From assembly GCF_006376685.1 (NCBI RefSeq), contig NZ_VEWL01000001.1, positions 351,869 to 375,868 of the forward strand: a stretch of DNA of 24,000 nt, written 5' to 3'. Numbering within the stretch: position 1 is the stretch's first letter; the number at the start of each line of letters is the position of its first letter. Source of the stretch: Ochrobactrum teleogrylli (GTDB taxonomy: Bacteria; Pseudomonadota; Alphaproteobacteria; Rhizobiales; Rhizobiaceae). Below are positions 6,139-21,055 of this stretch, in pieces. The notes beneath the pieces were generated by a model, which saw only the letters and a list, made by a program, of their open reading frames with translations, ran no database searches and was not told where the DNA came from. The translations under genes and the position numbers were made by a program.

Positions 6139-6163
6139 AAAGCCCCGGTTGAACCGGGGCTTT
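6139..6163. terminator. Bidirectional rho-independent terminator between convergent genes
   Basis: AAAGCCCCGG-ttgaa-CCGGGGCTTT perfect 10-bp stem. T-run on the plus strand (TTTGTTGTTT) and A-run on the other side. It lies between the binding-protein stop (6129) and the acoC-like stop (6170). Confidence 0.7.
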
Positions 6164-6169
6164 GTTGTT

Positions 6170-7531
6170 TCAGGCAACGGCGCGGATGCATTCGCCAAGA
6201 ATACGCAGTACTTCGGCGCGTTCCTCGATTTGCGGCATATGTCCGCAACGCTGGAAGATATGCACGCCGACTTTTCCGGGCAGCCCATGGGCGTGGCTGA
6301 CGGGAATGATCCGATCTTCCGCACCGAAGATCAGCCGCACAGGGATCGGCAATCCGGCTATGGTTGACCGCAGATCGAAGGTCTGCGTGCCATCGGTGAA
6401 GAACCGTTCCGCAATCGCGCTTTGCGCGGCGCGCAATTCGGTATCAGCGGCTTGGGCAACCGTGGCATTGATGAAAGGCCGCGTGAGCAGGCTTTCGTCG
6501 CTGACCAGCAGTTTCAGCCAAGGGATGATGCTCGCTTCGCTTTTGGCGGCGATCAGGCCCTTGGTGAAGGCGCCGTTGATTTCAGGGCCGAGACCGGCGG
6601 ACGAAATCAGCACCAGCGAGCGCACATCCACGATGCCGCGTGCGGCAACGGTCGCCGCAACGCCACCACCAAAGGAATGACCGCCAAGCACGCAGGCGTT
6701 CACGCCAACGGCGGCAAGTGTGGCTTCAACGGCCTCGGCGATCACATCGACGCTCTCCGGCACCGTGCGCGTGGAAGCACCGTGTCCGGGAAGGTCAAGC
6801 GCCAGAACCGGATGGCCGAGTGTTGCCCCTGCGAACAGGCCGCGCCATGAATTGAGGTCGGCGGCGAAACCGTGAATTAGGACAACAGGCAGTTTTCCGG
6901 CTTCACCCTCACGCAGCCAGACTGCATTGAGCGGTGCAGCGGAACCGGCGGTAGGTCTTCGTGCGGGGGGTGCAACCGGTTGGCTTACAGCGCCAGCCGC
7001 AACCGCAGCTTGGGCAGAGCCAATCTTCGCCTCGACATCCTTTTTCTGGACGCGTCCCTTGGGGCCGGAACCTGCAATCGCCTCAAGATCGATGCCAGCC
7101 TCCCGGGCCAGCCGGCGTGCAAGCGGCGTTGCACGCACGGCTGTGTCCTGAGCGGTAGCAGCTTGGGAGGTAGAAACGACCGGTTCGACAGGTGGGGGGC
7201 CATCCTCCCGAACCGGTACTGGCGCGCTCTGCGAGGGAGCAGGCTGCGCATCGGCGGGGCGCTCAACGGATGGTGGTGCTTTGCGCTCTTCGCCTTCTTC
7301 GTAAATCCACGCGACAGCCTGACCGACTGGCACAACAGTGCCCTCGGCGGCGCTCACATCTGCAAGAATGCCGCTGGCCGGTGCGTCCACTTCCATGGCC
7401 GCCTTGTCGGTTTCGATTTCGAACAGGAGCTGACCCTTCGTGACGGTATCGCCATCCTTGGCATACCAGCGCGAAATCTGGCCGGTCTCCATATCCATGT
7501 CGACTTTCGGCAGGATGACTTCCACTGCCAT
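6170..7531 (-). CDS. acoC: AcoC-type E2 component: lipoyl domain, E3-binding (PSBD) domain and alpha/beta-hydrolase domain
   Basis: Lipoyl domain [55 protein letters not shown]. The C-terminus is not a 2-oxoacid acyltransferase domain. It is an alpha/beta hydrolase ([13 protein letters not shown], nucleophile elbow GHSFGG, C-terminal GHMPQ), as in AcoC of acetoin dehydrogenase systems. Confidence 0.85.
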
Positions 7532-7533
7532 GG

Positions 7534-8532
7534 TCAGCGCACTCCCCTGGCAAGATCGCGGGCGCTTTTGAGAATGTCCGGCACCTGCGGCACGGTCGCG
7601 CGTTCAAGATCGGGATTGTAAGGGATCGGCGTCTCGGCGCCGCCAAGGCGGACAATCGGGGCGTCGAGATAATCGAAAGCATCGCTTTCGGCGACGATTG
7701 CAGAGATTTCCGCGCCGATGCCGAGTGTTTTCACAGCTTCATAGACGCAAAGCAGCTTCGAGGTTTTCTTGACGCTTCTGATGATCGTGTCGCGATCAAT
7801 TGGGCGCACGGTGCGCAGATCGATGACTTCGACGTCGATGCCTTCCTTGGCCAGTTCTGCCGCCGCATCCAGCGCCTTGTGCACCATAATTGCGGTCGCG
7901 ACGATGGTGAGATCACGGCCCTCGCGCACCACATCGGCCTTGCCGATGGGAACGGTATAATAGCCTTCCGGCACTGGCCCCTTCATCTTGTAGAGCAGCT
8001 TGTGCTCAAAAATCATCACCGGGTCGGGGTCTTCGACGGCTGCAAGCAACATGCCCTTGGCGTCATGCGGGGTGGAAGGCTGCAGGACCTTCAGGCCGGG
8101 CACATGGCCGAGCCAGGCTTCAAGGCTCTGGCTGTGCTGTGCGGCGGCGCCCGTGCCGGAACCGGCAGGAAAGCGCATGACCAGCGGCACCGAAACCGCG
8201 CCACCCAGCATATAGCGGATTTTTGCGGCCTGATTGACGATCTGCTCCATGGCGAGCGCAGCAAAATCGGAAAACTGGAATTCGAAAATCGGGCGCATGC
8301 CGGTCAGCGCTGCACCGACGGCGACGCCCGCACCGCCCAGTTCAGAAATCGGCGTGTCCATGACGCGGTCTTCGCCGAAGCGATGCACGAGATCGCCGGT
8401 TACCTGAAACGCGCCGCCATAGACGCCGATGTCCTCGCCCATCAGGAAAACACGGTCGTCGCGCTCCATGGCAATCGCCATGGCTTCCTGAATGGCTTGC
8501 GAATAGCTCAACTCGCGGATGGTGGTGTCCAT
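7534..8532 (-). CDS. acoB: Thiamine-diphosphate-dependent dehydrogenase E1 beta subunit (AcoB-like)
   Basis: 332 aa. Transketolase-like pyrimidine-binding and C-terminal domains ([31 protein letters not shown]). A 2-nt gap to both neighbours indicates an operon. Confidence 0.9.
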
Positions 8533-8534
8533 GA

Positions 8535-9569
8535 TCAGATTTCGTCCGTATATACGTCGCGGGTCAGATTGGTGAGGTCGGGAGAAGGGCTGTTGCGGGC
8601 ATACTCAATCGCGTCGGCGATTTCCTTCTCGACATTGGCCCGGATGGCTTCGATCTCGTTGTCGTCGATCACGCCATAAGCCTTCAGATCGGCCTCGAAA
8701 TGCGCGATGGGGTCGCGATTATTGGCCCAATCCTCGATCTCTTCCTTGGTGCGATAACGGTTGCGGTCGCTCTTGGAATGACCGCGAAGGCGATAGGTCT
8801 TGTTCTCGATCAGCGACGGGCCTTCCCCGCGCCGCGCACGCTCCACGGCCTCGTTGATGGCTTCGGCAACGTCGGAAAGGTTGTTGCCGTCCACGACCTT
8901 GCCGGGCATAGCATAGGCCGATGCGCGGTCCGCGACATTCACCACCGCCGTTGAACGCTTGGTTGAAGTAGACATGCCGTAGCCATTGTTTTCGCAAACG
9001 AAAACGACCGGCAACTTCCAGACGGAAGCCATGTTGAGCGCTTCATGGAAAGCGCCTTCATTGTTGGCGCCATCGCCGAAGAAGGACACAACAACCTTGT
9101 TGCTCTTCTGCTTCTTGGCGGAAAGCGCAGCACCCACTGCAATCGGAATGCCACCGCCGACAATGCCATTTGCGCCGAGATTGCCTTTGGATACATCAGC
9201 AATGTGCATGGAGCCGCCGCGACCCTTGCAATAGCCGGTTTCCTTGCCGAAGAACTCGGCAAACATGCGCTTCACATCGGCACCCTTGGCGATGCAATGA
9301 CCATGGCCGCGATGGGTAGAGGTGATCATGTCATCTTCGGTCAAAGGCAGGCAGGAACCCATGGCGCTTGCTTCCTGTCCGATGGACAGGTGCATCGTGC
9401 CGTGAATAAACCCCCGCGTGTAACTTTCTTCCGCGCCTTCTTCGAAGCGGCGGATGAGATACATCTTGTGCAGCGCTTCCTTCAGCTGTTCGGGAGAATA
9501 GGTGCGGAAAGCGAAGGGCAGGTTGTGGCGATCTGCGGCCTGCGCGTCAATCTTTCTGGCCTGAACCAT
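8535..9569 (-). CDS. acoA: Thiamine-diphosphate-dependent dehydrogenase E1 alpha subunit (AcoA-like)
   Basis: 344 aa. ThDP motif [43 protein letters not shown]. Immediately downstream of the COG4091 oxidoreductase gene. Confidence 0.9.
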
Positions 9570-9580
9570 GGTGCGGCTCC

Positions 9581-10900
9581 TTATGCTCCGTAAACGAGCT
9601 TGTCCTGGCGGGCGCGCAGTTCGGCGATCTTCGATCCCGGCGCGACGGCAGCATTGTCATAGGTGATGAGTTCGCCCTTCCTGATCGGCTTTGTCACGCT
9701 GCCGCCCTGAAGAAGACCGCAGGGGATGGCATGCGCTGTACGCGCTTCGCCAGACGTCATGATCCAGGCGCGGTAGCAATATTCGCCAATGGCATCGAGC
9801 TTTTCGCCCGGCTGCATATCCTTCTTGGCCACAGCGCAGACTTCGGCCACCGGCTTTGCCAGGGGCACCATGTCCGGCTTGCCGTAAAGCACGACACGGG
9901 CGCAGGTGAGGGGAACTTCGAGCGAGGTCAGGTGATAAGGGCGGTGGAAGGTGAAGTAAGGGCCTTTGCCCATTTTCAGATCTTCCATGCGTTCCGAAAC
10001 ACGCGGATGCGACATGTCGGCCACAACGAAGACGCCGGGCGCAACACCCTTGCCGATGGAGTAATCCACGACGCCGACTTTCGAAAGCACACCGCCGTCC
10101 TTTTCAGGAATCAGCGTCTTGTTGAGCTGGTCGAGCGTTGCGGCAGGGCCGTGCATGCCCGGCTTGTCCGGCACCAGACCCGTGGCATTGGCGATGGCTG
10201 CCATTTCCACCATGGTCTTGGAGCCATCGACGAACTCCACCAGCATACGCACATTCATGTTGCGGCGTTTGGCTTCTTCCAGATAATCGTCGGGAATGGC
10301 GTCGATATTGAGCGGGTTGTTCTTGCCCTTGCCAGCGGCAACGATGGGATGCCCCATGGCTGAAACGAACTCGATCAGTTCCATGCAGGACGATGGTTCG
10401 TCGCCGGCACCCAGCGAATAGGTGACGCCCAGACGGTCGGCTTCTGCCTTGAGGTAGGCACCGATGGTGACATCGGCTTCGACATTCATCATGACGAGAT
10501 GCTTGCCATGTTCCATGGCGCGCAGGCCGATTTCCGCGCCGACAGCCGGAACGCCGGTGGCGTCGATGACCACATCGATCAAATCATTTTCGAGGATCAG
10601 ACTGGCATTGTCCGTAACGGCGACCTTGCCGCCTTCCATGGCGGAGGTCAGGTCGGAAGCGTTTGAAACTTGCCTGCCGTGGCCTTCTTCCTGATAGGCG
10701 ATATCAACCGCTTTCAAAGCGTTCGGAACACGCAGTTCGGAAATGGCGCCGATTTCGATGCCGGGCATATGCGCCACGCGGGTCACGATGTCGGTGCCCA
10801 TTTCGCCGGAGCCGATCAGCCCGATACGGATCGGCCGTCCGCTGTCAGCACGCGCTTGCATATCACGTGCCAAGCCCGTCAACGCCACATTCGTCGCCAT
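9581..10900 (-). CDS. NAD(P)-dependent oxidoreductase of the COG4091 / homoserine-dehydrogenase-like plus SAF-domain family (DRL/DXR-II-type), 439 aa
   Basis: Rossmann motif IRIGLIGSGEMGTD near the N-terminus. GAGDEPSSCMELIEF and GKGKNNP motifs. A C-terminal SAF-like beta-clip (AVAKKDMQPGEKLD..., KPIRKGELITYDN). AGGAGG RBS. First gene of the operon. Its size and architecture match the family that contains Brucella abortus DRL. Orthology is not verified. Confidence 0.8.
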   Translation of the reverse strand: MATNVALTGLARDMQARADSGRPIRIGLIGSGEMGTDIVTRVAHMPGIEIGAISELRVPNALKAVDIAYQEEGHGRQVSNASDLTSAMEGGKVAVTDNASLILENDLIDVVIDATGVPAVGAEIGLRAMEHGKHLVMMNVEADVTIGAYLKAEADRLGVTYSLGAGDEPSSCMELIEFVSAMGHPIVAAGKGKNNPLNIDAIPDDYLEEAKRRNMNVRMLVEFVDGSKTMVEMAAIANATGLVPDKPGMHGPAATLDQLNKTLIPEKDGGVLSKVGVVDYSIGKGVAPGVFVVADMSHPRVSERMEDLKMGKGPYFTFHRPYHLTSLEVPLTCARVVLYGKPDMVPLAKPVAEVCAVAKKDMQPGEKLDAIGEYCYRAWIMTSGEARTAHAIPCGLLQGGSVTKPIRKGELITYDNAAVAPGSKIAELRARQDKLVYGA

Positions 10901-10958
10901 CTTTTCCTCCTGATGTTCCTCCAGACGCCTTCGCGCCTCTCTTCCCTTACCCGATAAT

Positions 10959-10970
10959 GAACATTTGTTT
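10959..10970 (-). promoter_or_regulatory. Shared operator-like motif, copy 1 (reads AAACAAATGTTC toward the DRL-like/aco operon)
   Basis: Exact 12-mer GAACATTTGTTT on the plus strand, 58 nt upstream of the start at 10900. In the minus orientation it sits 3 nt downstream of a -35-like TTGACT (10979-10974). The same 12-mer recurs at 11066-11077 and 20306-20317. Confidence 0.6.
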
Positions 10971-11064
10971 CCAAGTCAATACGAGTGTACATTTATCACG
11001 CGCCCCAGACCTGTTATTCCTTACCGTGCTTTATCGCTTGTGAACAAACATTGGTCTGCTATAA

Positions 11065-11079
11065 AAAACAAATGTTCTG
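11065..11079 (+). promoter_or_regulatory. Shared operator-like motif, copy 2 (AAAACAAATGTTCTG toward the gat-type PTS operon)
   Basis: This 15-mer is the exact reverse complement of 20304-20318. It lies 118 nt upstream of the IIC start at 11198. It forms an inverted pair with copy 1, about 107 bp centre to centre, in the divergent intergenic region. Confidence 0.6.
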
Positions 11080-11197: not shown

Positions 11198-12607
11198 ATG
11201 GACGCATTTCTAAGCGGCCTGAAATCGGCCATCGATACATTGGGAGCGACGGTCCTGCTCCCTATCGTCATTTTCATTATAGCCGTGGTTCTTGGCGCTA
11301 AGGTGGGCAAAGCCTTCCGCGCTGCCGTGACCATCGGCGTCGCCTTCATCGGTATCAACCTCGTATTGGGGCTGATGTTCACCTCCATTGGCGAGGTGGC
11401 TCAGGCGATTGTTACCAATACGGGCATCAAGCGCGATATCGTCGATGTGGGCTGGCCTTCGGCTGCGGCCATCGCTTTCGGTTCGTCCGTGGGGCTTTGG
11501 GTCATTCCGGTCGGCATTCTGGTCAACATCGCGCTGCTTTTGATGCGCTGGACCCGCACGCTCAATGTCGATGTTTGGAACTTCTGGCACTTTGCCTTTG
11601 TCGGCTCGCTTGTCGTCGCCGCAACGGACAATCTCGCCTATGGCATTATCGTTGCAGCTCTTGTTGCGGCTCTGTCGCTGCTGTTCGCTGACTGGTCGGC
11701 ACGCGCCGTACAGCAGTTCTATGGCGTTCCGGGCGTTTCCGTTCCGCATCTGGCATCGGCGCAAATTCTGCCGATTGCCATCGTGCTCAACTGGATCATG
11801 GATCGCATTCCTGGCATCAACAAGATCCACATCAGCACCGAAACCATCGAACGCCGTTTCGGCGTCTTCGGCGAGCCGGTGGTTCTGGGCCTGATTATCG
11901 GTCTCGTGCTTGGTCTCATCGCTTTCTACAATTCAGGCGATTTCGGCCATGTGCTGGCCAAGGTGCTGGGCACCGGCATGACGCTTGCCGCCGTGATGCT
12001 GCTTCTGCCGCGCATGGTCAAAATCCTGATGGAAGGCCTGCTGCCGGTTTCTGATGCCGCACAGGAATTCGTGCGCAAGCGCACCGGCGACCGCGAATTG
12101 CTGGTCGGTCTCGATTCGGCAATCCTGATCGGCCATCCGGCTGCGATCTCGTCGTCGCTGATCCTCGTGCCGATTGCGATCATCCTGTCGGTGATACTGC
12201 CGGGCAACCGCGTCATCCTGTTTGCCGATCTTGCGGTTATTCCGTTCATCGTCGCCATGACTGCGCCGCTGTTGAAGGGCAACGTGTTCCGCATGGTTGT
12301 CGTCGGCACGGTGACGCTCGCCATCGGCTTCTATGTGGCCAATGCGCTGGCTCCGCTCTTCACGAGCGCTGCCGTGTCATCTGGCTTCAAGTTGCCGGAA
12401 AACGCGTTGCAGATCACTTCGGTGGTCGACGGCTTCCTGTGGGTGCCTTATGTCATCATCGCCGCAATCCAGTGGTTAGGCGTTGTTGGAATCGCAGTTC
12501 TTGCAGTCGTCATCGCCGCAGCGTTCATTCTCTATCGTCGCAACACCGACGGTTGGGAACGCGCTGCCGGTGCGGAAGACGAACCAGCCGAGCAGAACAA
12601 CTGGTAA
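11198..12607 (+). CDS. PTS galactitol-family EIIC permease (GatC-like), 469 aa
   Basis: I chose the start ATG at 11198 (GGAGGA RBS 7 nt upstream). MDAFLSGLKSAIDTLGATVLLPIVIFI..., VDVGWP, NVDVWNFWHF, FGEPVVLG and GLDSAILIGHPA are collinear with E. coli GatC as I recall it. Multiple TM segments. The upstream 71 codons of the track ORF lack any RBS or homology. Confidence 0.88.
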   Translation: MDAFLSGLKSAIDTLGATVLLPIVIFIIAVVLGAKVGKAFRAAVTIGVAFIGINLVLGLMFTSIGEVAQAIVTNTGIKRDIVDVGWPSAAAIAFGSSVGLWVIPVGILVNIALLLMRWTRTLNVDVWNFWHFAFVGSLVVAATDNLAYGIIVAALVAALSLLFADWSARAVQQFYGVPGVSVPHLASAQILPIAIVLNWIMDRIPGINKIHISTETIERRFGVFGEPVVLGLIIGLVLGLIAFYNSGDFGHVLAKVLGTGMTLAAVMLLLPRMVKILMEGLLPVSDAAQEFVRKRTGDRELLVGLDSAILIGHPAAISSSLILVPIAIILSVILPGNRVILFADLAVIPFIVAMTAPLLKGNVFRMVVVGTVTLAIGFYVANALAPLFTSAAVSSGFKLPENALQITSVVDGFLWVPYVIIAAIQWLGVVGIAVLAVVIAAAFILYRRNTDGWERAAGAEDEPAEQNNW

Positions 12608-12670
12608 GGCGCAAAAGCAATATTGGCCGCATACCGGAGAGGTATGCGGCTATCTGCAATGGAGGATGGA

Positions 12671-13132
12671 ATGGCGAACGGCCTGACGGCTTTTCTCGAC
12701 CCTGAAGCGATTGAGCTGCAGAGCGAGGCCAAAACCAATGAGGAAATTATCCGTATTCTGGCGGCGAAGCTGGAACGGCTCGGCTATGTAAAGCCCAGCT
12801 ATGCGGATGCGGTCGTGAAGCGGGAACAGACCATGCCAACCGGTCTGCCGCTGGAGCGCGAAGAAAACGTTGCCGTTCCGCATACCGACCCCGAGCATGT
12901 CCTGAAAGCGGGCATCGCTTTTGCGACGCTGAAAACCCCCGTCATCTTCGCCAATATGGAAGATCCGGAAGAGGACGTTCCCGTCGGATTTGTCTTCCTG
13001 CTTGCCATCAATGACAAGGACAAACAGATCGAGACCTTGCAACAGGTGATGGCGACCATTCAAAATGAGGACGCGCTCGAGAATCTCAAGAAATCGCGCA
13101 CATTGAGTGACGTGGAAGCTGCGCTCGGTTAA
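12671..13132 (+). CDS. PTS EIIA component, type 2 (GatA/mannitol-fructose family)
   Basis: About 153 aa from the ATG at 12671 (GGAGG 5 nt upstream). Candidate phosphorylatable His in NVAVPHTDPEHV. Length and layout are like GatA. The start is ambiguous (alternatives 12623, 12644, 12659). Confidence 0.8.
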   Translation: MANGLTAFLDPEAIELQSEAKTNEEIIRILAAKLERLGYVKPSYADAVVKREQTMPTGLPLEREENVAVPHTDPEHVLKAGIAFATLKTPVIFANMEDPEEDVPVGFVFLLAINDKDKQIETLQQVMATIQNEDALENLKKSRTLSDVEAALG

Positions 13133-13146
13133 TCGGAGGAAACAAA

Positions 13147-13434
13147 ATGGCCAAAATGAAAACGATTCTCTTTGCCTGCGGCACCGGCGTCGCAACATCC
13201 ACTGCCGTGAATGCTGCCGTCACCGAAGAGATGAAAAAGCGCGGGCTGACCTTCAACGCCCAGCAGGCCAAGGCGACCGAAGTGCCGTCTCTGGCTGACA
13301 ATGTGGATTTCATCGTTTCCACGACGCCTATTTCCGCCGCAGTCGAGAAGCGGGTCATCAAGGGCCTCGCATTCCTGACCGGCATCGGCAAGGACAAGGT
13401 TCTGGACGAAATCGAAGCCGAATTGCGCAAGTAA
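13147..13434 (+). CDS. PTS EIIB component (GatB-like, Cys-phosphorylated)
   Basis: 95 aa. MAKMKTILFACGTGVATST contains the active-site Cys loop typical of GatB / lactose-family IIB. GGAGGA RBS upstream. Confidence 0.85.
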   Translation: MAKMKTILFACGTGVATSTAVNAAVTEEMKKRGLTFNAQQAKATEVPSLADNVDFIVSTTPISAAVEKRVIKGLAFLTGIGKDKVLDEIEAELRK

Positions 13435-13450: not shown

Positions 13451-13484
13451 AGGGCGCTTTCGTGCAGGATCACGAAAGCGCCCT
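13451..13484. terminator. Bidirectional terminator hairpin between the gat-type operon and the SorC-family gene
   Basis: Perfect 14-bp stem AGGGCGCTTTCGTG-caggat-CACGAAAGCGCCCT, followed by a T-rich tract on the plus strand. It lies between convergent stops at 13434 and 13514. Confidence 0.75.
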
Positions 13485-13513: not shown

Positions 13514-14548
13514 TCAGTTCGGAACGGAATGTCCGATGCGCCGGAGCATTTCGGCGGCACTTTCCTCGTCGGTGATGAACACCGTTGGACGCAGAAGTTT
13601 CATCGCGCCGAGAAGCGCTTCGATCTTTTCCTTGCCGCCGGATGTCAGGATGCGTTGCGGCGTGTTCTGCAAGCTTTCGATGCTGGCCGACATGACGCGC
13701 TCATGCACCGGATCATCGACGATACGGCCATCGGCATTGTAGAAATGGAACAGAACGTCGCCGACCGCACCATTGGCGCGCAGCGATTGTTTCTGCTCTT
13801 CATCGACGAGCCCCACGCGGTAGGACGTGCTGCTGGCGGTCTCGATGCCACCAATGCTGAGCAACACCATGTCGAGATCTTCCGCCATGTCCAGCACTGT
13901 GTTCAGGCCACAACGTTCAATCAGGGCTGTGCGAGTCTCCTTGCTGTCCACGAGGGCGGGCGCGGGGATAAGGTAGCCTTCGCCTTGCAGCATCTGCGCG
14001 AATTGCCAGGCAAATTCGGGCGGGTTGGAGCGTCGTGGCTGCACAATGCCGCCGAGAAGCGAAATGACCTTAAGATCGTTCACCGGACGCGAGCCGATAT
14101 GCTGCAAGGTGCTGGATAAAGTGCGGCCCCAGCCGACACCAATGCGCATGCCGTGCTGGATTTTTTCCGACAGATAAGCGCCGGTCGCAGCACTTATCGG
14201 AGGAATCGGATCGGTCTCGGCAGAGGAGAGGGGCGCGACAATGGCCTGTTCCAGCCTGAACGCCTTTTCAAGCGCCGCTTCCAGCGCGGTCAAAGCCGAA
14301 AGCTTACCTTCAATGGTGATCTTCACCTCGTTGCGGGCGCGGGCATCGGCAAGAAGACGCACAATGGTCACGCGGCCAACACCCAGCGCATCGGCAATAT
14401 CGCTCTGGGTCATCTGCTCGACATAATACATCCACGCCGCACGGGTTCTGAGGCGGCTGGTGCGGTTTTCCGCTGCAACGCCTTCGGAGCCCACCAGAAG
14501 GTCGTTGGTTTCAGCTGCGTTCCGTTTCCCCTTGGCGGTCTTTCTCAA
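13514..14548 (-). CDS. SorC/DeoR-type sugar-binding transcriptional regulator
   Basis: HTH region RAAWMYYVEQMTQSDIADALGVGRVTIVRLLADAR, followed by a SorC sugar-phosphate-binding domain (IGVGWGRTL, VISLLGG, VLLSIGG, GDVLFHFYN). TTG start at 14548 (GGGGA upstream). The start is uncertain. Confidence 0.85.
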   Translation of the reverse strand: MRKTAKGKRNAAETNDLLVGSEGVAAENRTSRLRTRAAWMYYVEQMTQSDIADALGVGRVTIVRLLADARARNEVKITIEGKLSALTALEAALEKAFRLEQAIVAPLSSAETDPIPPISAATGAYLSEKIQHGMRIGVGWGRTLSSTLQHIGSRPVNDLKVISLLGGIVQPRRSNPPEFAWQFAQMLQGEGYLIPAPALVDSKETRTALIERCGLNTVLDMAEDLDMVLLSIGGIETASSTSYRVGLVDEEQKQSLRANGAVGDVLFHFYNADGRIVDDPVHERVMSASIESLQNTPQRILTSGGKEKIEALLGAMKLLRPTVFITDEESAAEMLRRIGHSVPN

Positions 14549-14684
14549 ATCGATTCCCCAAAATTCTTGCAGTTTGCGTCTTTGTGATATGGACCCTATT
14601 GCTTTTCCGGGACGAGGAAAACAATACTTCTTTTGTATCGGTTAAGATACGATTGTTGGCCTCGCTAGGAGGAAGAGATCGATC

Positions 14685-15422
14685 ATGCTGCGCACACTTT
14701 CCGATGAAATCGCCGTCAATCTGAAAGACCGTCTGCGTGACGTGCGTTACGTGATCAGACGCGCCCGGCAAAGTTCGCGTGCGCCCGAAACCAGCCTGCC
14801 CGCACCGGAAGCGCTTCTGGGCCATGCCGCAGGCGTGATGGATACGGCGCTGACCGCCGCCGAGGCGATCTCAATCTCGATTATTTCGTCTGAACCGGCC
14901 AAACATCATGGCGCGCCACAGATGCGCAGCCTATCCTTTTATTTCGGCACCGGTGCGGAAGGTGCGCGCGGTTTCCGCAGCGATATGTATTATTTCCTCA
15001 AGGGAACGATGCGGCGCTACGGACTTGAAAACGCACTTATCCACGAAGCGGCTTTTTCGGTCATCCACGGGCGTCTGTTGCGCAAGCACGCGGAACTTCT
15101 GCGCGATCCTCGAAAGGTTGCACAGGCGCTGGCCGCGCTTTATCTGGAATATCTGGCTGAAAGCCCTGTCCGCTTGACGTCGTTGGAAGTCTCGTGCGAC
15201 CCGGAAAATCTGCGCAAGGCGGAAGTGGTCGGGCTTGCCGCTACTTGCCTCGCTTGCGGGCTGGCGACCGTAAAGCCTGCCGATCTCGCCGATATCGATC
15301 CGCTGGAAAGCGTGTTTATGGTGCTGGAAGCACGCTATGAACGGCTGGTGGATGCGGCAGAGACCCGCGACGCGAAGAAGCTCGAAACCCTCTTCGCGAC
15401 GCTGATTGCCCACCTACCTTAA
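14685..15422 (+). CDS. Hypothetical protein (245 aa), no family recognised
   Basis: ATG with AGGAGG upstream. Codon usage looks native. Mostly helical, with no TM segment or signal peptide seen. It is divergent from the SorC-family gene. Its 3' end overlaps the HPr-EI gene 3' end by 9 nt. Confidence 0.55.
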   Translation: MLRTLSDEIAVNLKDRLRDVRYVIRRARQSSRAPETSLPAPEALLGHAAGVMDTALTAAEAISISIISSEPAKHHGAPQMRSLSFYFGTGAEGARGFRSDMYYFLKGTMRRYGLENALIHEAAFSVIHGRLLRKHAELLRDPRKVAQALAALYLEYLAESPVRLTSLEVSCDPENLRKAEVVGLAATCLACGLATVKPADLADIDPLESVFMVLEARYERLVDAAETRDAKKLETLFATLIAHLP

Positions 15423-17414
15423 GTCGCCAAACAGATCGGCGATGATCTTCTTGGCGCGGGGAATGGAAGCCGGGCTCATGCTGAGCTCGGTCAGTCCCAT
15501 GCGGATAAATTCCGGGATCAAATCCGGCTTGCCTGCCGCTTCTCCGCACATGCCGACCATGATGCCCGCTGTCGTGGCTGCTTTCGCGGTCATTTCAATG
15601 GCCGCCATTACAGCTGGATGATGCACGTCGTTGAGCCTCGCGACCGTCGGGTTGAGACGGTCTGCCGCCATGACATATTGCGTCAGATCATTGGTGCCGA
15701 TGGAGAAGAAGGCGGATTCCTTGGCCAGCTGATCGGCTGCGAAAACCGCTGCCGGTGTTTCGATCATAACACCCAGTTCAAACGTGCCGTAAGGCTTGCC
15801 TTCTGCTGTCAACTCGCGCTCGCATTCGGCAATCAGGCTTTTTGTCGCCCGGATCTCCTCGATATCGGAAACCATCGGCAACATGACCTTCAGTTTGCCG
15901 TGCACTGAGGCGCGAAGCAGGGCGCGCAATTGCGGCTTAAACACCTCCGGGCGGTCAAGGCACATGCGGATGCCGCGCCAGCCGAGGAACGGGTTTTCCT
16001 CCTCGGGAAACTCGATGCCGGCGACGGGCTTGTCACCGCCGATATCGAGTGTGCGGACAATGACAGACTGGGGGGCGAAAGCGCGCAGAAGTGATGCATA
16101 GGTTTCCATCTGCATGTCTTCGGACGGCAAATGGATATGCTTCATGAACAGAAGCTCGGTGCGGAACAGGCCGACGCCCATCGCGCCTGCGGTCTGGGCC
16201 GCTTCGATTTCCTCCAAAGCGCCGAGATTGGCCGCAACCTCAATCACCACGCCATCGGCGCGGCGCGGCGTATAGTCACGATACTTGTCCAGCGCACGCT
16301 GTTCTTCCGTGGCCTTGGCAATGCGGCTTTCGATTTCGGCCAGAACGGTGGCATTCGGGTCGTGATGGACAATGCCCGCACTGCCATCGACGGCAACCTG
16401 TCGCGCTGTCTTCAGTCTATGAACAGCGTCGCCAAGTCCAAGCACTGCCGGGATTCCGTGCGTGCGCGCGATGATCGCGACATGCGAGGTCGCGCCGCCA
16501 TGGCCGCAAACCACGCCGCGAATGCGCTTCAGCGGTGCGCGGGCCAAGTCCCAAGCGCCGATGTCTTCGGCGATCAGAATGGCACCGTCCGGTAGTCCGT
16601 CGAGATTGAGGTCTTCCTGACCGAGCAAGGCGAGACAAATCTGGCGGCTGATTGCGTGCACATCGTCGGCGCGGGCATTGAGATAGGGATCGTCGAGGTT
16701 GGCGAATTGCTGCGCGACCGTCGAGGCAGCGCCGAGCGTTGCGGAGACCGCATCCATGCCGCCGCGAATAAGGGCGTGTGCTTCGTCCCGCAGGCTGTCG
16801 TCGGAGGCAATATCCTTCAATGCAGCAACGATGCCGCGATCACTTTCGGCGAGATCGTCGCGCGCGAGCGAATGTTCCATCCGCTCTTGAACAGTTGCGA
16901 CAGCGGCCTCGTAACGGCTGATTTCCGGTGCGATTTCGTGAGGTGCCAGCTTGCCGGTGCCGGGCGTGATTTCGGCAGGGAAAAACGGAAATGCCTCGCC
17001 AAGCGAAAGACCTTCACTGGCGGCAACGCCCTTGATCTGGCCTTCCGGCAACGCTGCAATCGCAACACTCGCGACCGGGGCGGTGACGGGAGCAGTCTCC
17101 ACCACCGCGGCAACGGCTGCGCCGTCATTTTCCTCAAGCCCCGCGCGCGGGTTTTCGAGATAGCCGATCAGCGCTTCCAGTGCTTCAATCGCGTCAGCCC
17201 CTTCGGCGCTGACGGTGACTTCGTCATTTTCCTTCACGCCAAGCAGCATGAGCTTAACGGAGCTTTTCGCGCTGACGCTTTTGCCGCTCTTTGCGATCTC
17301 GATATTACACTCGAACCCCTTGGCGAGCTTGACGAAACGAGTGGCGGGGCGCGCATGCAGCCCTTCATGCACCCGGACGATGGTGGAGCGTTCCATTTGA
17401 GAGCCTTGGATCAT
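15414..17414 (-). CDS. Fused HPr - Enzyme I (phosphoenolpyruvate-protein phosphotransferase), 666 aa
   Basis: N-terminal HPr domain (VHEGLHARPATRFV, GKSVSAKSSVKLMLLG). An Ala/Val-rich linker. Then EI with active-site GGATSHVAIIARTHGIPAV and C-terminal PEP-binding motifs FFSIGTNDLTQY and GMCGEAAG. The start is either 17414 or the ATG at 17396. Confidence 0.9.
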   Translation of the reverse strand: MIQGSQMERSTIVRVHEGLHARPATRFVKLAKGFECNIEIAKSGKSVSAKSSVKLMLLGVKENDEVTVSAEGADAIEALEALIGYLENPRAGLEENDGAAVAAVVETAPVTAPVASVAIAALPEGQIKGVAASEGLSLGEAFPFFPAEITPGTGKLAPHEIAPEISRYEAAVATVQERMEHSLARDDLAESDRGIVAALKDIASDDSLRDEAHALIRGGMDAVSATLGAASTVAQQFANLDDPYLNARADDVHAISRQICLALLGQEDLNLDGLPDGAILIAEDIGAWDLARAPLKRIRGVVCGHGGATSHVAIIARTHGIPAVLGLGDAVHRLKTARQVAVDGSAGIVHHDPNATVLAEIESRIAKATEEQRALDKYRDYTPRRADGVVIEVAANLGALEEIEAAQTAGAMGVGLFRTELLFMKHIHLPSEDMQMETYASLLRAFAPQSVIVRTLDIGGDKPVAGIEFPEEENPFLGWRGIRMCLDRPEVFKPQLRALLRASVHGKLKVMLPMVSDIEEIRATKSLIAECERELTAEGKPYGTFELGVMIETPAAVFAADQLAKESAFFSIGTNDLTQYVMAADRLNPTVARLNDVHHPAVMAAIEMTAKAATTAGIMVGMCGEAAGKPDLIPEFIRMGLTELSMSPASIPRAKKIIADLFGDLR

Positions 17415-17429
17415 GAATGCTTCTTGAGA

Positions 17430-17810
17430 TCAGTCGCTGATGACGATCATATGTCCTTCGCGCAGAACGGCAACCAAAGCGGCGCCGTCAACTTCGCTGG
17501 CACAGATTTCGCCCGGACGGTCGGTCGAGTCGGCCCCGGTAAACGATATCACCACATGGCCGATGTCACGCACTTTCTGCCAGGCGCTTGCTCCAACAGC
17601 GGTAATGTTTGCCGTTATGTCGCCAATGGTGATGAGCGCGCCAACCGGCGGCGCAGCTTCCTGCGGACCGTCTTCGACTGCATGCATCACCGAGACTTCC
17701 GCGAGTTCGGGCGGAGAGCCCTCTGCAAACAGGATCAGAACGCCGCCTTCGGCGAGATCAGCCACTTCGGGACCAATTGCGGTGATCCGTGTCTTGAGAT
17801 GTATCGGCAT
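17430..17810 (-). CDS. srlB: PTS glucitol/sorbitol-family EIIA (SrlB-like)
   Basis: MPIHLKTRITAIGPEVADLAEGGVLILFAEGSPPELAEVSVMH... is collinear with E. coli SrlB (MTVIYQTTITRIG...). I chose the ATG at 17810 (AAAGGA RBS) over the GTG at 17834 on the basis of homology. Confidence 0.85.
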   Translation of the reverse strand: MPIHLKTRITAIGPEVADLAEGGVLILFAEGSPPELAEVSVMHAVEDGPQEAAPPVGALITIGDITANITAVGASAWQKVRDIGHVVISFTGADSTDRPGEICASEVDGAALVAVLREGHMIVISD

Positions 17811-17839
17811 GGCGGCAGTCCTTTTCAATTTCACTCAAT

Positions 17840-17876
17840 CGGCATCCTCCAAAAATTGGGGAGATGAGGATGCCGA
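17840..17876 (-). other. Intercistronic stem-loop between srlE and srlB
   Basis: 10-bp perfect arms CGGCATCCTC / GAGGATGCCG with a 17-nt loop, inside the 127-nt srlE-srlB spacer. Confidence 0.35.
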
Positions 17877-17937
17877 AAATTAAAGGCAGAGATTGGGAGG
17901 AGCGGCCCGCCGCTTTGATGCGACGAGCCAGTTTGCG

Positions 17938-18942
17938 TCAAAGCACGGCGAGGCTGACGAGCCAGGCGATGAGCACCGAGACAGGGCCCATGATCTGGCG
18001 GCTGATCAGGATCGCAGGCACGCCGATTTCAATCGTCTTCGGTTTGGCTTCACCGAGCGCCAGACCCACTGGCACGAAGTCGCAACCGACCTGCGTGTTA
18101 TAGGCGAAGAGCGCGGGCAGGGCCATTGCCGGAGCGATGGTGCCATTGGCAATCTGCGGGCCGATAATGGCCACACCCACTACCTGCGCGATGACTGCGC
18201 CCGGTCCAAGGATCGGAGAAAGAAACGGCAAGCCGCAGATAGCCGACAGCACAAGCAGGCCAATGATATTGTTGGCGAGTGGTCCCATCGGCTGGGCAAG
18301 AATATCGCCGATGCCGGTGTAAAGAATGAGACCGATCAGCATCGTCACGAAAGCCATGAATGGCAGAACGTTGCGGATGACCTGATCGATGGTGCGGCGA
18401 CCGGCGTTGAAGAAAATGCCGACGACACGGCCCATGACGCGGCCGATCCGGCTGATCAGCCCGACAAGGCCGCCATCATTCGATGTATCGATTGGCGCTG
18501 CTGGCTTTTCGTCGGCCTTTGGGGCTGCGGCTGCAAAGGACGCGGTGGCGGCAGGAGCCTCGGAGCCATCGGCAGGAACGACATTTTCGGGCTTCACGCC
18601 GGAGACATAAATGTCTTCGGTAATAAACTGCGCAAGCGGGCCGGACTGGCCCACGGGCGTGAGATTGACGGTCGGGATGCGCTTGCGCGGATAGACGCCG
18701 CAACGGGCGGTGCCGCCGCAATCGACCACGACGACAGCCATTTCGCTTTCAATGGGCGGAGCGCGGAAACCGTCTACGGCTTCGCCTCCGGTCATTTCCG
18801 CGATCTGTCTGGCGAGCGGATGGATGCCGCCGCCGGTCACGGATACGATCTTGCTACGCTGTTCGGTGGGCTGGATGACAAGCGGTCCGCCCCAGCCACC
18901 GGAGCCGTGGGAAATTCTAACGGATTTGTAGGTTTTGGCCAT
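17938..18942 (-). CDS. srlE: PTS glucitol/sorbitol-family EIIBC (SrlE-like), 334 aa
   Basis: SHGSGGWGGPL, VVDCGGTARCGVYPRKRIPTVN, SGPLAQFITEDIYVSGVK, ILPFMAFV and LSPILGPGAVIAQV are collinear with E. coli SrlE. GGGAGG RBS. Confidence 0.9.
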   Translation of the reverse strand: MAKTYKSVRISHGSGGWGGPLVIQPTEQRSKIVSVTGGGIHPLARQIAEMTGGEAVDGFRAPPIESEMAVVVVDCGGTARCGVYPRKRIPTVNLTPVGQSGPLAQFITEDIYVSGVKPENVVPADGSEAPAATASFAAAAPKADEKPAAPIDTSNDGGLVGLISRIGRVMGRVVGIFFNAGRRTIDQVIRNVLPFMAFVTMLIGLILYTGIGDILAQPMGPLANNIIGLLVLSAICGLPFLSPILGPGAVIAQVVGVAIIGPQIANGTIAPAMALPALFAYNTQVGCDFVPVGLALGEAKPKTIEIGVPAILISRQIMGPVSVLIAWLVSLAVL

Positions 18943-18960
18943 GATGTCCTCCCGCGCGCC

Positions 18961-19737
18961 TTAAAGCTCGATGCCCTGACGGCGCGCCATGATGGCGGTG
19001 ATGCGTTCGGTGAGCATGCCTTTGAGCAGGATCACGACGAGGCCGACGATGGCGTACCAGATGGCCACATTGATGTGATAGCCATTGGCGACAGCGCCTT
19101 TCTTTTCCAGTTCAAGCAGCGCCACGAGTACGCCACCCCAGACGAAATATTCGCCGGGATTGATATGCGGGAAGAGGCCAAGTGGCGGATGCACATAGGA
19201 CACTGCCGCGTCGTAAAAGGCAGGCTTGTGCTTTTCCTCAAGGAACGAACCGAAGGTATAGGCCATCGGATTGGTCAGGAAGAACACCGACAGCACCGGC
19301 AGAACCGTATAACGGGTTAGCGCGATGCGGCCCGCCCCCTGTGCCAAACCGTGCACGCGCTTTTCGCCGACGAGTTCGGTGATTGCGTAGAAGGCGGTCA
19401 TCAGAACCACCAGGGTCGGAATGATGCCGGTCACGAAACCGGAAAACACTTCGCCACCCTTTTGGAAAATACCGATGAAGTGCTTGCCGATCGAGGCCAG
19501 CCAGCCCAGCTGTTCTTCCTGCGTGACGTTTTGCAGTCGTTCCTTGAACTGATCGACAGTCAGATTGTCCGTGCCGGTTGCCTGTGCAAGTTGCACAAGG
19601 TTATCGCTACCGTGTTCGACGGCTAGCTTGCCGTGAAACACCGCGTCCGTTGCTATGTTGGCGGCCATCTGGCTCGCCACATGCAAGGACTGTAAGGTCG
19701 TATCGGCGCCTTGCGCCAGCATTGCAGCTATAGACAT
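18961..19737 (-). CDS. srlA: PTS glucitol/sorbitol-family EIIC (SrlA-like) with an extra N-terminal region of about 75 aa
   Basis: The C-terminal ~180 aa (FIGIFQKGGEVFSGFVTGIIP..., LFPHINPGEYF) match E. coli SrlA end to end. I chose the start ATG at 19737 with a strong GGAGGAGGAG RBS, the same RBS as gutM. No in-frame ATG lies near the SrlA-homologous start. Confidence 0.85.
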   Translation of the reverse strand: MSIAAMLAQGADTTLQSLHVASQMAANIATDAVFHGKLAVEHGSDNLVQLAQATGTDNLTVDQFKERLQNVTQEEQLGWLASIGKHFIGIFQKGGEVFSGFVTGIIPTLVVLMTAFYAITELVGEKRVHGLAQGAGRIALTRYTVLPVLSVFFLTNPMAYTFGSFLEEKHKPAFYDAAVSYVHPPLGLFPHINPGEYFVWGGVLVALLELEKKGAVANGYHINVAIWYAIVGLVVILLKGMLTERITAIMARRQGIEL

Positions 19738-19813
19738 TTCTCCTCCTCCACGCCCGTCCTCGTCGGGCGATACCCCTTGAACATTGCCACCCAGTTCACG
19801 GTTGGACACACGC

Positions 19814-20242
19814 TCAGGCGTGCGCCAGCTTCAGTCCTTCGAGAGACGTGCCGTCGGATTGTTCGCGGATGCGGTCGATCTGGTCCATCGCCTGCTTTGC
19901 GGCAGCATTGACAGGTGACTTTTCGAGCGCTTCCTGTTCACGCCGCAAGGCATTGAGCGGCATGCCCTCATAGGCTTCCTGCCGCTTGAACTTCGCGAAC
20001 ACGGTTCGTCCGCTCATTTCGAGAAAGCGCCGGACCTTCAGGTCGCGGTCAACCACGATCATGACAATGACGCCTTTGCCGAAGCGCCCGCGTACATGGC
20101 CTGCACCCACGAATCCGTCAGAGTAGCGGGATGTGACGCCTTTCAGCACGTCGGAGTAATGGCGCATCTGAAACCAGACGCCCAGCGACTGGACCCCCCA
20201 TAAAAGAGCCAAAGCCAGTAAAGCCCATTGCCAGATAGCCAT
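19814..20242 (-). CDS. gutM: GutM-like glucitol operon activator (142 aa)
   Basis: N-terminal TM helix MAIWQWALLALALLWGV. Then VGAGHVRGRFGKGVIVMIVVD...LEMSGRTVFAKF, which matches the GutM pattern of E. coli (GRSSGRF...VVV...MKGLTVFA). ATG at 20242 with a GGAGGAGGAG RBS. Confidence 0.75.
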   Translation of the reverse strand: MAIWQWALLALALLWGVQSLGVWFQMRHYSDVLKGVTSRYSDGFVGAGHVRGRFGKGVIVMIVVDRDLKVRRFLEMSGRTVFAKFKRQEAYEGMPLNALRREQEALEKSPVNAAAKQAMDQIDRIREQSDGTSLEGLKLAHA

Positions 20243-20303
20243 TTTCTCCTCCTCCACCGGAGGCTTCGTGCGTCTTTGAGCGCCGCCAGTCTCCGTCTCT
20301 TCA

Positions 20304-20318
20304 CAGAACATTTGTTTT
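20304..20318 (-). promoter_or_regulatory. Shared operator-like motif, copy 3 (reads AAAACAAATGTTCTG toward gutM-srlAEB-HPr/EI)
   Basis: CAGAACATTTGTTTT on the plus strand is the exact reverse complement of 11065-11079. It lies 61 nt upstream of the gutM ATG. In the minus orientation it sits 6 nt downstream of a perfect -35 hexamer TTGACA (20330-20325), so it overlaps the promoter spacer and -10 region. Confidence 0.6.
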
Positions 20319-20422
20319 CTTAAATGTCAATATGTATAATTATGAGGTGAAGATTGCGGGAAGGACAAGCTGACAACGGTAGCGGTTTCGCATATGGTCT
20401 GTCGGCATTGGAGGCGTGGAAT

Positions 20423-21055
20423 ATGGATTTGCTTTTGAAGAACCAGATGACATCGATGCCGGACTTGCGGCGTCGCTTGCGGCAGTTGCGCTGGTTCAGG
20501 GCGACGTTTCGCAAACACGCCAGTCTTCTCCATGATGTCTATGGTGTCGATTATGAGATCGACGAGCAGAAACTGACGGAAGCTTTTCTGAACTGGGTAG
20601 AACTGGTCGAGCAGAACAAGCGTTATGCCAAGGTGGACCGCAAGGATTTCATCACCTTTGCCGCCGGGCTGGTTCTGCGTGAACTGATCCGCCTGTCGCC
20701 TGCCCGGGGGTTATTGATCCCGAAGGCGAACGAGGGCGAGAATACGCCGCAACACGACATTATCGCCTTCTGGCCGGAGGGGTTCCTCTATACCAATTAC
20801 TGCATTTGCGCGATTGCCGCCGTGCAGGAGCAGGAATTCGGCGTGGCACAGGATATCGACGCCTGTGCGGACGATTTGCGAACCTGGTGGTCTTACCGGG
20901 AAAACGTGGCCGACATGCCGGGCTATGCGATAGCCTTCCTCGACAAGTTTCTGGGTGGCGAGCCGAACTGGGTCATGCCCGATCTCGCCTCGGCCCGCGT
21001 GGCGGTGCAAAGGGCGCTCGGCGCGCAAAATCCGTCAGGCGCGATAAAGGGTTAG
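20423..21055 (+). CDS. Hypothetical protein (210 aa), no family recognised
   Basis: I chose the ATG at 20423 (GGAGG 8 nt upstream). MDLLLKNQMTSMPDLRRRLRQLRWF... No TM segment or signal peptide seen. It is divergent from gutM and convergent with acvB. Confidence 0.55.
   Translation: MDLLLKNQMTSMPDLRRRLRQLRWFRATFRKHASLLHDVYGVDYEIDEQKLTEAFLNWVELVEQNKRYAKVDRKDFITFAAGLVLRELIRLSPARGLLIPKANEGENTPQHDIIAFWPEGFLYTNYCICAIAAVQEQEFGVAQDIDACADDLRTWWSYRENVADMPGYAIAFLDKFLGGEPNWVMPDLASARVAVQRALGAQNPSGAIKG

Follow-up and report, generated by a model that had tools for sequence, protein, structure and literature searches.

A conserved 34-bp inverted repeat shared by a DXR-II-aco operon and two polyol-type phosphotransferase operons of Ochrobactrum teleogrylli: a probable operator of a SorC-family repressor

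Our analysis of a 24,000-nucleotide stretch of Ochrobactrum teleogrylli DNA (contig NZ_VEWL01000001.1, positions 351,869 to 375,868; referred to here as the window) concerned a 12-mer that occurs three times in its intergenic regions. Alignment with related genomes indicates that a 34-bp inverted repeat, TGnACA-N22-TGTnCA, is present once per promoter and that this 12-mer forms its strong half. We estimate at about 0.75 the probability that the repeat is the operator of a repressor of the SorC/DeoR subfamily. By analogy with characterised members of that subfamily, the binder is most probably the protein encoded at 13514-14548 of the window, and the three operons preceded by the element (DRL(DXR-II)-acoABC, a gat-type phosphotransferase system (PTS) and a gut-type PTS headed by gutM) are very probably switched together.

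The 12-mer, GAACATTTGTTT, is present exactly at 10959-10970 (plus strand), 11066-11077 (minus) and 20306-20317 (plus), as had been reported in an earlier interpretation of the window from its letters alone (the sequence-only reading). Read towards the operon that it precedes, every copy is AAACAAATGTTC, which puts copies 1 and 3 on the minus strand and copy 2 on the plus strand in that sense. Copies 1 and 2 lie between DRL (start 10900, minus) and gatC (start 11198, plus), and copy 3 between gutM (start 20245, minus) and an open reading frame for a 213-residue protein (start 20414, plus); the intergenic placement and the uniform orientation relative to the operons, both part of the earlier interpretation, are thus true of all three. 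The edge of copy 1 nearest DRL (10959) is 59 bp upstream of the DRL start codon, while the distal ends of copies 2 (its 5' end) and 3 are about 130 bp upstream of the gatC start and 72 bp upstream of the gutM start codon, respectively. Also as first described, copies 2 and 3 share the 15-mer CAGAACATTTGTTTT (11065-11079 minus and 20304-20318 plus), the core of the 12-mer contains an AACA-N2-TGTT dyad, and the minus strand reads TTGACT-TGG before copy 1, with a -35-like TTGACT 3 nt from it.

The sequence-only reading held chance recurrence to be very unlikely, and this was right for exact copies, with three observed against none in 100 dinucleotide-preserving shuffles. The triple occurrence is, however, weak evidence when taken alone, because the window has two further 12-mers, both GC-rich and located within genes, that are likewise present in triplicate; with up to two mismatches allowed, three copies stand against 1.42 expected in the window, which is not significant. 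The 12-mer is significant because it is conserved across related loci. A 16-bp weight matrix scanned over the window gave only the three known sites as strong, at 23.3 bits for copy 1, 28.5 for copy 2 and 28.0 for copy 3; the next-best score in the window was 9.5 and the maximum over 50 shuffles 15.6. An Rfam scan of the whole window found no RNA family, and the 12-mer and its variants had no match in the bacterial literature searched.

The comparison set amounted to 1,572,804 bp from about 90 Rhizobiales loci (designated by L numbers), taken around orthologues of the candidate regulator and, for 80 of them, around DRL orthologues from one genome per species; the proteins of the window were mapped onto every locus. 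It contains 24 exact copies of the 12-mer and 48 when one mismatch is tolerated; the corresponding counts for permuted control words, of which three were tried, were 0 and 5 each. All but two of these 48 copies precede DRL or gutM by 36-91 bp or gatC by 119-134 bp. Likewise, the weight matrix matched 115 times at 14 bits or more, and 85 of these matches are upstream of DRL (56), gutM (24) or gatC (5). Footprinting of orthologous intergenic regions, which the sequence-only reading had proposed, set 24 exact copies against none for the permuted words, and the common dispersed repeat that would have undone that reading was not found in these roughly 1.6 Mb, where the matches gather at three promoter classes, nor in the window, which has only three sites. 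In comparative terms the 12-mer is a conserved cis-element common to the DRL-aco, gat-like and gut-like control regions, and the idea of a single regulon holds because the element is conserved and shared and is not a dispersed repeat.

The distribution of the element among DRL genes is selective. Within 200 bp upstream, it was present at 55 of the 64 DRL genes that are followed by acoA and at none of the 15 without acoA (loci L010-L089), which points to two functional classes of DXR-II genes, aco-linked and stand-alone. In the stand-alone DRL genes of the Aminobacter type (L050, L055, L057, L058, L061 and L072), the left ACA and a TTGACA are kept and the right half is replaced by GCCATAATTC. 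Ensifer, Rhizobium and Allorhizobium have the site variant TAACAAATGTAC, with a regulator homologue of 49-51% identity encoded directly upstream of DRL; TGTAC and TGTTC variants coexist in one Shinella genome.

The internal geometry of the element emerged from alignments anchored on the 12-mer, comprising 55 distinct DRL promoters and 19 distinct gutM promoters, the latter from several genera in which the GutM matches range from 54 to 99% identity. The DRL-class consensus is TGnACAttnGTcTTGACa.aaAnACAnATGTTCAaTA and that of the gutM class ATtATACATaTTGACATt..AgaAAACAAATGTTCT. What these two non-orthologous classes have in common, besides the 12-mer, is a (T)(G/A)nACA hexamer followed, after precisely 22 nt, by TGT(T/A)C. 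The N22 spacing of the outer arms is fixed in 55/55 DRL and 19/19 gutM promoters, which places the centres of the two halves 20 bp apart. A left 6-mer ending in ACA stands at this distance in all 55 DRL operators; it is TG(G/A/C/T)ACA in 46 and AGAACA, CGAACA, GCTACA or GGCACA in the other nine, and the right arm is TGT(T/A)CA. The right half is itself a good dyad (ACA-N2-TGT inside AnACAnATGTTCA), with AnACA-NA-TGTTC in all three promoter classes, whereas the left half is weaker, a degenerate ACA-tt-nGT that is seen in the DRL class only.

In the window, a search for ACA-N22-TGTWCA on both strands found the full 34-bp operator of DRL(DXR-II)-acoABC, O_DRL, at 10958-10991 on the minus strand (5'-TGTACA-N22-TGTTCA-3'), with copy 1 of the 12-mer as its strong, palindromic right half. 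The -35-like TTGACT (10974-10979, minus) lies between its half-operators, and TTGAC hardly varies among the 55 DRL promoters; its role is presumed to be that of a -35 element. O_gutM, between gutM and the divergent gene for the 213-residue protein, occupies 20305-20338 on the minus strand (5'-TATACA-N22-TGTTCT-3') and has its -35-like TTGACA at 20325-20330 (minus), offset by 3 nt from the DRL promoter relative to the half-sites. In the opposite direction, a candidate promoter of the 213-residue protein gene (20312-20340, plus) would consist of a TTGTTT inside the 12-mer, an N17 spacer and a TATAAT (20335-20340) overlapping the left half-site; TAT(A/G/T)(A/T)T is conserved on this strand of the gutM-class alignment. 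O_gat (11046-11078, plus; left AAACA at 11046-11050, N22, TGTTC at 11073-11077), which precedes the gat-like PTS operon, shows the weakest conservation among the three operators: its left half-site is absent in L003-type relatives and the whole site is lost in L011. Here copy 2 lies directly downstream of a candidate gat promoter, TTGTGA-N16-TATAAA (11038-11065, plus), read by eye.

The product of the gene at 13514-14548 (minus strand) is a SorC/DeoR-subfamily regulator, with the Pfam Sugar-bind domain (4e-58) and a homeodomain-like helix-turn-helix (HTH) that gives weak HTH_23 and Sigma70_r4 matches, and is the predicted repressor at all three operators. Its alignments with DeoR (8r7y, E 5.5e-33), LsrR (4go1, 2.2e-31) and the Klebsiella pneumoniae SorC (2w48, 4.5e-28) span the full length of the protein. 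Both arginines of the recognition region are kept (VGRVTIVRLL here, ISRPTVSRLL in DeoR, LTRLKVSRLL in LsrR); they would correspond to R34 and R39 of the DeoR paper, assuming five extra N-terminal residues in the deposited chain. Against the NCBIfam equivalog models it scores 187.9 bits for DeoR (cut-off 420) and 134.3 for LsrR (cut-off 486), so that, by these scores, it is a member of the family and an orthologue of neither B. subtilis DeoR nor E. coli LsrR. Orthologues of 57-99% identity occur in Brucella/Ochrobactrum, Phyllobacterium, Mesorhizobium, Shinella and Limoniibacter. Nineteen loci contain such an orthologue, which in 16 is close to motif-bearing gut and/or DRL promoters and in most is joined to the gut-PTS cassette. 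This cassette is organised as [213-residue protein gene] | gutM-EIIC-EIIBC-EIIA-HPrEI, [245-residue protein gene] | SorC in Brucella/Ochrobactrum, Phyllobacterium and Mesorhizobium, while in Shinella and Limoniibacter SorC directly follows HPr-EI and the 213-residue protein gene is elsewhere or not mapped. The gutM promoter has the operator in all of these genera, and the aco and gat modules are shuffled around the cassette, yet stay nearby. The SorC-family protein, one of the two binders put forward by the sequence-only reading, is thus the most likely one, as the half-site, the dyad spacing and the bipartite layout are those of the DeoR operator and of the E. coli lsr repeats; nothing in the analysis points to GutM, the other.

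The binding model that we propose, including repression, the promoter positions and the nature of the inducer, is drawn by analogy with DeoR, CggR and LsrR. A first dimer of DNA-binding domains would occupy the right, palindromic half, A(A/T)ACA-NA-TGTTC(A), and a second, 20 bp away centre to centre, on the weaker left half, of which only the outer TGnACA is kept. At the DRL-aco and gutM promoters both dimers would cover the -35-like TTGACA and the spacer to the -10 region; at gutM the same tetramer would also cover the divergent promoter of the 213-residue protein gene, and at gat the strong half would lie directly downstream of the likely -10. RNA polymerase would be blocked from an occupied operator until a phosphorylated intermediate derived from PTS uptake binds the sugar-binding domain and releases the repressor. 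One regulon would accordingly comprise DRL(DXR-II)-acoABC, the gat-type PTS, the gut-type PTS with its gutM and HPr-EI genes, and the 213-residue protein gene. The control logic of this model is conventional; the unusual part is the content of the regulon, with DXR-II, an Aco-like complex and polyol PTSs.

Several observations weigh against the assignment of the element to this repressor. No copy of the motif is present in the promoter region of the regulator gene itself (14548-14685), so that no autoregulatory site ties the protein to it. L001 and L002 hold an 89%-identical orthologue with its 245-residue partner and no target operon within 10 kb, and many operator-bearing DRL loci have no close SorC orthologue within their 10-kb flanks; in some of the latter a SorC paralogue of 33-37% identity adjoins aco and could be the binder there. 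A scan of both control regions for E. coli-type consensus promoters and terminators called nothing at the three sites, and since it calls no promoter, the statement that the operators overlap core promoters rests on the conserved -35-like hexamer and on weak -10 candidates. Finally, SorC of K. pneumoniae is reported to be both an activator and a repressor, which makes the direction of control uncertain.

Some of these points could also mean that another protein (GutM, the 213- or 245-residue protein, a SorC paralogue or an unlinked global regulator) binds what is a genuine shared operator. This is kept in play by the motif-free promoter of the regulator and the abundance of paralogues, those of 33-51% identity being found beside DRL-aco in many genomes; in L001, a paralogue has this type of site nearby. 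The 213-residue protein gene, moreover, lies beside a motif-bearing promoter in most gut-cassette loci, and the 245-residue protein gene always accompanies SorC. We nevertheless consider it unlikely, as the half-site sequence and layout match two characterised SorC-subfamily systems and GutM is absent from the flanks of many operator-bearing DRL loci. The 213- and 245-residue proteins were considered as hidden DNA binders and set aside, having no HTH family match and no significant fold match in the PDB, although either may bind DNA.

The sequence-only reading had treated the inverted pair of 12-mers about 107 bp apart as the functional unit, which an oligomeric regulator would bridge by DNA looping to shut both divergent promoters. 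The distance of 107 bp corresponds to about 10.2 helical turns, and the 95-97 bp in four relatives to about 9.1, so that the helical phase is roughly kept; SorC-family proteins do form tetramers (PMC11229326). However, every copy is accompanied by a partner half-site of its own at a distance of 22 nt, which would suffice for a tetramer in the manner of DeoR, and looping is therefore not needed. The gutM site is a single operator with no second copy nearby, and most DRL operators in other genera come without any gat copy. The distance between the 12-mers varies, from 107 bp here and in L010 to 96 in L003 and L013, 97 in L012 and 95 in L014, and in L011 there is no longer a gat copy and in L013 it is mutated, with the DRL operator intact in both. 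The pair as the unit of function has thus given way to a separate 34-bp operator around each 12-mer; looping is the less likely account, although it may occur as an extra.

It is very unlikely that the 12-mer is a promoter element in its own right (a -35 or -10, an UP-like element or a target of an alternative sigma factor). It does lie inside the presumed core promoters, and its internal TTGTTT could be the -35 of the divergent 213-residue protein gene. However, TTGAC occupies alignment positions 20-24 in gutM-class promoters and 23-27 in DRL-class ones with the half-sites in register, and at gat the 12-mer comes after the likely -10; the half-sites are not promoter elements because TTGACA shifts by 3 nt between the classes and their own spacing is fixed. 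The dyad and the partner half-site at a fixed distance are also typical of a dimeric or tetrameric regulator. By eye, the GG-N10-GC spacing of a sigma-54 promoter does not fit the three copies, and the spacing and orientation of a CcpA catabolite-responsive element (cre) or a Clr/CRP-type TGTT-N8-AACA site are equally unsuitable. The alphaproteobacterial LexA box is GAAC-N7-GAAC; the 12-mer site does contain a GAAC, but the second one is absent at N7 in all three copies, and the site is a dyad and not a direct repeat. Chance recurrence or a functionless dispersed repeat, for which the two other triplicated 12-mers and the mismatch-tolerant count might speak, is practically negligible in view of the shuffles, the conservation at orthologous positions across many genera with no exact control matches, and the confinement of matches to a few promoter classes.

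Some further sites of a similar kind came to light. Mesorhizobium has an extra operator-like site, GCACA...AAAGTCA(A/G)ATGTTCAA (L090 3312-3327, L091 3315-3330, and also in L024, L029, L031, L032 and L035), upstream of a HAD-family hydrolase gene that adjoins the 213-residue protein gene, which suggests that the hydrolase is a further regulon member there. A related TGTTCA-N20-TGAACA site with AAACAAATGAAC and TTGACA (L001 16920-16960, L002 9520-9560) is flanked by an ABC-transporter operon and the gene for a SorC paralogue of 35% identity, and similar sites are found near other genes in L053, L067, L073 and L084. From these occurrences, the operator type seems to be common to SorC paralogues in Rhizobiales. 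The intergenic region between SorC and the 245-residue protein gene contains another conserved inverted repeat, CTATTGCTTTTCC ... GGAAAACAATA (14596-14627), kept in four genera with a spacer between the arms that varies; it could belong to the promoter of the regulator itself (TTGTTT-N17-CAATAG) or be where some other factor binds.

The first target operon (6170-10900, minus strand) is headed by the gene for the DRL-family oxidoreductase of the DXR-II family (9581-10900) and continues with acoA-like (8535-9569), acoB-like (7534-8532) and acoC-like (6170-7531) genes. The second (11198-13434, plus) encodes the gat-type PTS components IIC (11198-12607), IIA (12623-13132) and IIB (13147-13434), and the third (15414-20245, minus) comprises gutM (19814-20245), gut EIIC (18961-19809), EIIBC (17938-18942), EIIA (17430-17834) and an HPr-EI fusion (15414-17414). 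No sorbitol-6-phosphate dehydrogenase, kinase or aldolase gene is present in the cluster. To our knowledge, alphaproteobacteria usually have regulatory PTS proteins only, and sugar-type PTS permeases with their own HPr-EI are rare among them; the full set found here (gat IIC/IIA/IIB, gut EIIC/EIIBC/EIIA and a dedicated HPr-EI) is conserved in Brucella/Ochrobactrum, Phyllobacterium, Mesorhizobium and Shinella.

Two genes of the cluster encode proteins of no family. That for the 213-residue protein (20414-21055, plus), divergent from gutM and sharing O_gutM with it, adjoins gutM in most gut-cassette loci; in those of Shinella (L049, L069) and in L078 it is found at another place in the locus. 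That for the 245-residue protein (14685-15422, plus) is always paired divergently with SorC. Neither protein matched a Pfam, NCBIfam or HTH family. Their AlphaFold2 (AF2) models are confident and all-alpha, with a predicted local distance difference test score (pLDDT) of 80 for the 213-residue and 91 for the 245-residue protein, and a PDB fold search with these models gave no significant match (best E 1.9 and 0.8; TetR-like matches had a TM-score of about 0.2). The two are not detectably homologous to each other by hhalign (probability 2%). The 245-residue family is tiny, amounting to 77 clusters among 1.8 billion representatives; the 213-residue family has 467 matches, and all those with a named source are from Rhizobiales or from unclassified alphaproteobacterial or proteobacterial metagenome-assembled genomes.

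Short GC-rich inverted repeats at the convergent gatB/SorC junction (13451-13484; AGGGCGCTTTCG / CGAAAGCGCCCT) and after acoC (6139-6163) are likely terminators. At 21078-23995 (minus), genes for a VirJ/AcvB-like protein and an LpiA-like lysyl-phosphatidylglycerol synthase overlap by 4 bp; this looks like the usual lpiA-acvB pair of Rhizobiales, unrelated to the operator.

DXR-II has been studied as an antibacterial target in Brucella. The DRL protein is about 79% identical over its full length to DXR-II of Brucella abortus (PDB 3UPL/3UPY) and keeps G121, T229, H250, R320 and V351, the residues named as DXR-II signatures (PMC3847144); by these sequence criteria its gene is a true member of the DXR-II family. 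It is also 99% identical to the counterpart in Brucella (Ochrobactrum) haematophila CCUG 38531, which the window matches. The only enzymes in the proposed regulon are this reductoisomerase and the acetoin-dehydrogenase-like complex, dependent on thiamine pyrophosphate (TPP) and lipoyl groups, beside two polyol-type PTSs with their own HPr-EI. A tentative and, in our opinion, rather doubtful idea is that the regulon amounts to a full catabolic route in which the first step of the MEP (methylerythritol phosphate) pathway is reversed. The PTS would take up and phosphorylate 2-C-methyl-D-erythritol or 1-deoxy-D-xylulose, DXR-II would convert MEP to DXP (1-deoxy-D-xylulose 5-phosphate), and the Aco-like TPP/lipoyl complex would split DXP by oxidative cleavage into acetyl-CoA and glyceraldehyde-3-phosphate. 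In this scheme DXP or MEP, close analogues of phospho-DPD (phosphorylated 4,5-dihydroxy-2,3-pentanedione), the ligand of LsrR, would be sensed by the LsrR-like repressor. A literature search on methylerythritol or DXP catabolism returned nothing relevant. If true, this route would give DXR-II an original catabolic role and answer the question of why a 'redundant' DXR evolved (PMC3847144).

For an uncharacterised SorC-family regulator, found widely in Rhizobiales, the present work provides a 34-bp operator model together with a concrete regulon. Through one operator it also links genes that are not normally found in company: those of a DXR-II paralogue, of an acetoin-dehydrogenase-like complex and of sugar-type PTS permeases that come with an HPr-EI of their own.

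Among known systems, the closest parallel to the SorC-type operator proposed here is that of B. subtilis DeoR, ATTGAACAAAATTTCAATTACCAATTTACATATGTTCAA, which is TGAACA-N24-TGTTCA with a right half of ACA-TA-TGTTCA, spans -60 to -21 and so overlaps the -35, and has a TTGAACA that is contacted base-specifically (PMC11229326). The DeoR tetramer binds it as two dimers of DNA-binding domains, one on each half-operator (PMC11229326). The two systems share outer inverted half-sites TGAACA ... TGTTCA, a right-half core (ACA-N2-TGTTCA against ACA-AA-TGTTC here), half-operators about two helical turns apart (22 bp in DeoR, where a dimer of dimers binds them, and 20 bp here), a position across the -35 region (presumed here from a -35-like hexamer), and the domain layout and recognition arginines of the regulator. 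They differ in the outer spacing (N24 in DeoR, N22 here) and in the better palindrome, which is the left half in DeoR and the right half here. The regulator is also a distant relative, at 188 bits against the NCBIfam DeoR cut-off of 420, and the targets are polyol PTS and DXR-II/aco genes with predicted binding, whereas those of DeoR serve nucleoside catabolism.

For LsrR, we read the lsrR-lsrA intergenic sequence of E. coli K-12, which contains two TGAACA-N21-TGTTCA repeats, one of them with the right half ATACATTTGTTCA. This half differs only at two central bases from the ATACAAATGTTC variant here, and in both cases the inverted repeats stand in a divergent control region. The lsr repeats are reportedly the footprinted LsrR boxes. 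LsrR is a tetrameric repressor that senses a phosphorylated C5 keto-sugar, and it autoregulates. The spacing is N21 in lsr and N22 here, and the lsr site lies upstream of the lsrR gene itself, whereas the regulator's own promoter here has no such site.

CggR of B. subtilis, from the SorC/CggR subfamily, resembles the proposed system in that a tetramer occupies two tandem half-operators and is released by a sugar phosphate (PMC11229326). Its DNA-binding domain is, however, a winged helix, and its operator, CGGGAC-N6-TGTC, is unrelated in sequence and lies at +32 to +77, downstream of the transcription start. With the gut (srl) system of E. coli the cluster shares a gut-type PTS operon headed by gutM; it differs in having no sorbitol-6-phosphate dehydrogenase gene, in a repressor of the SorC type where GutR/SrlR of E. 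coli is of the DeoR type, and in an operator that is common to operons other than gut.

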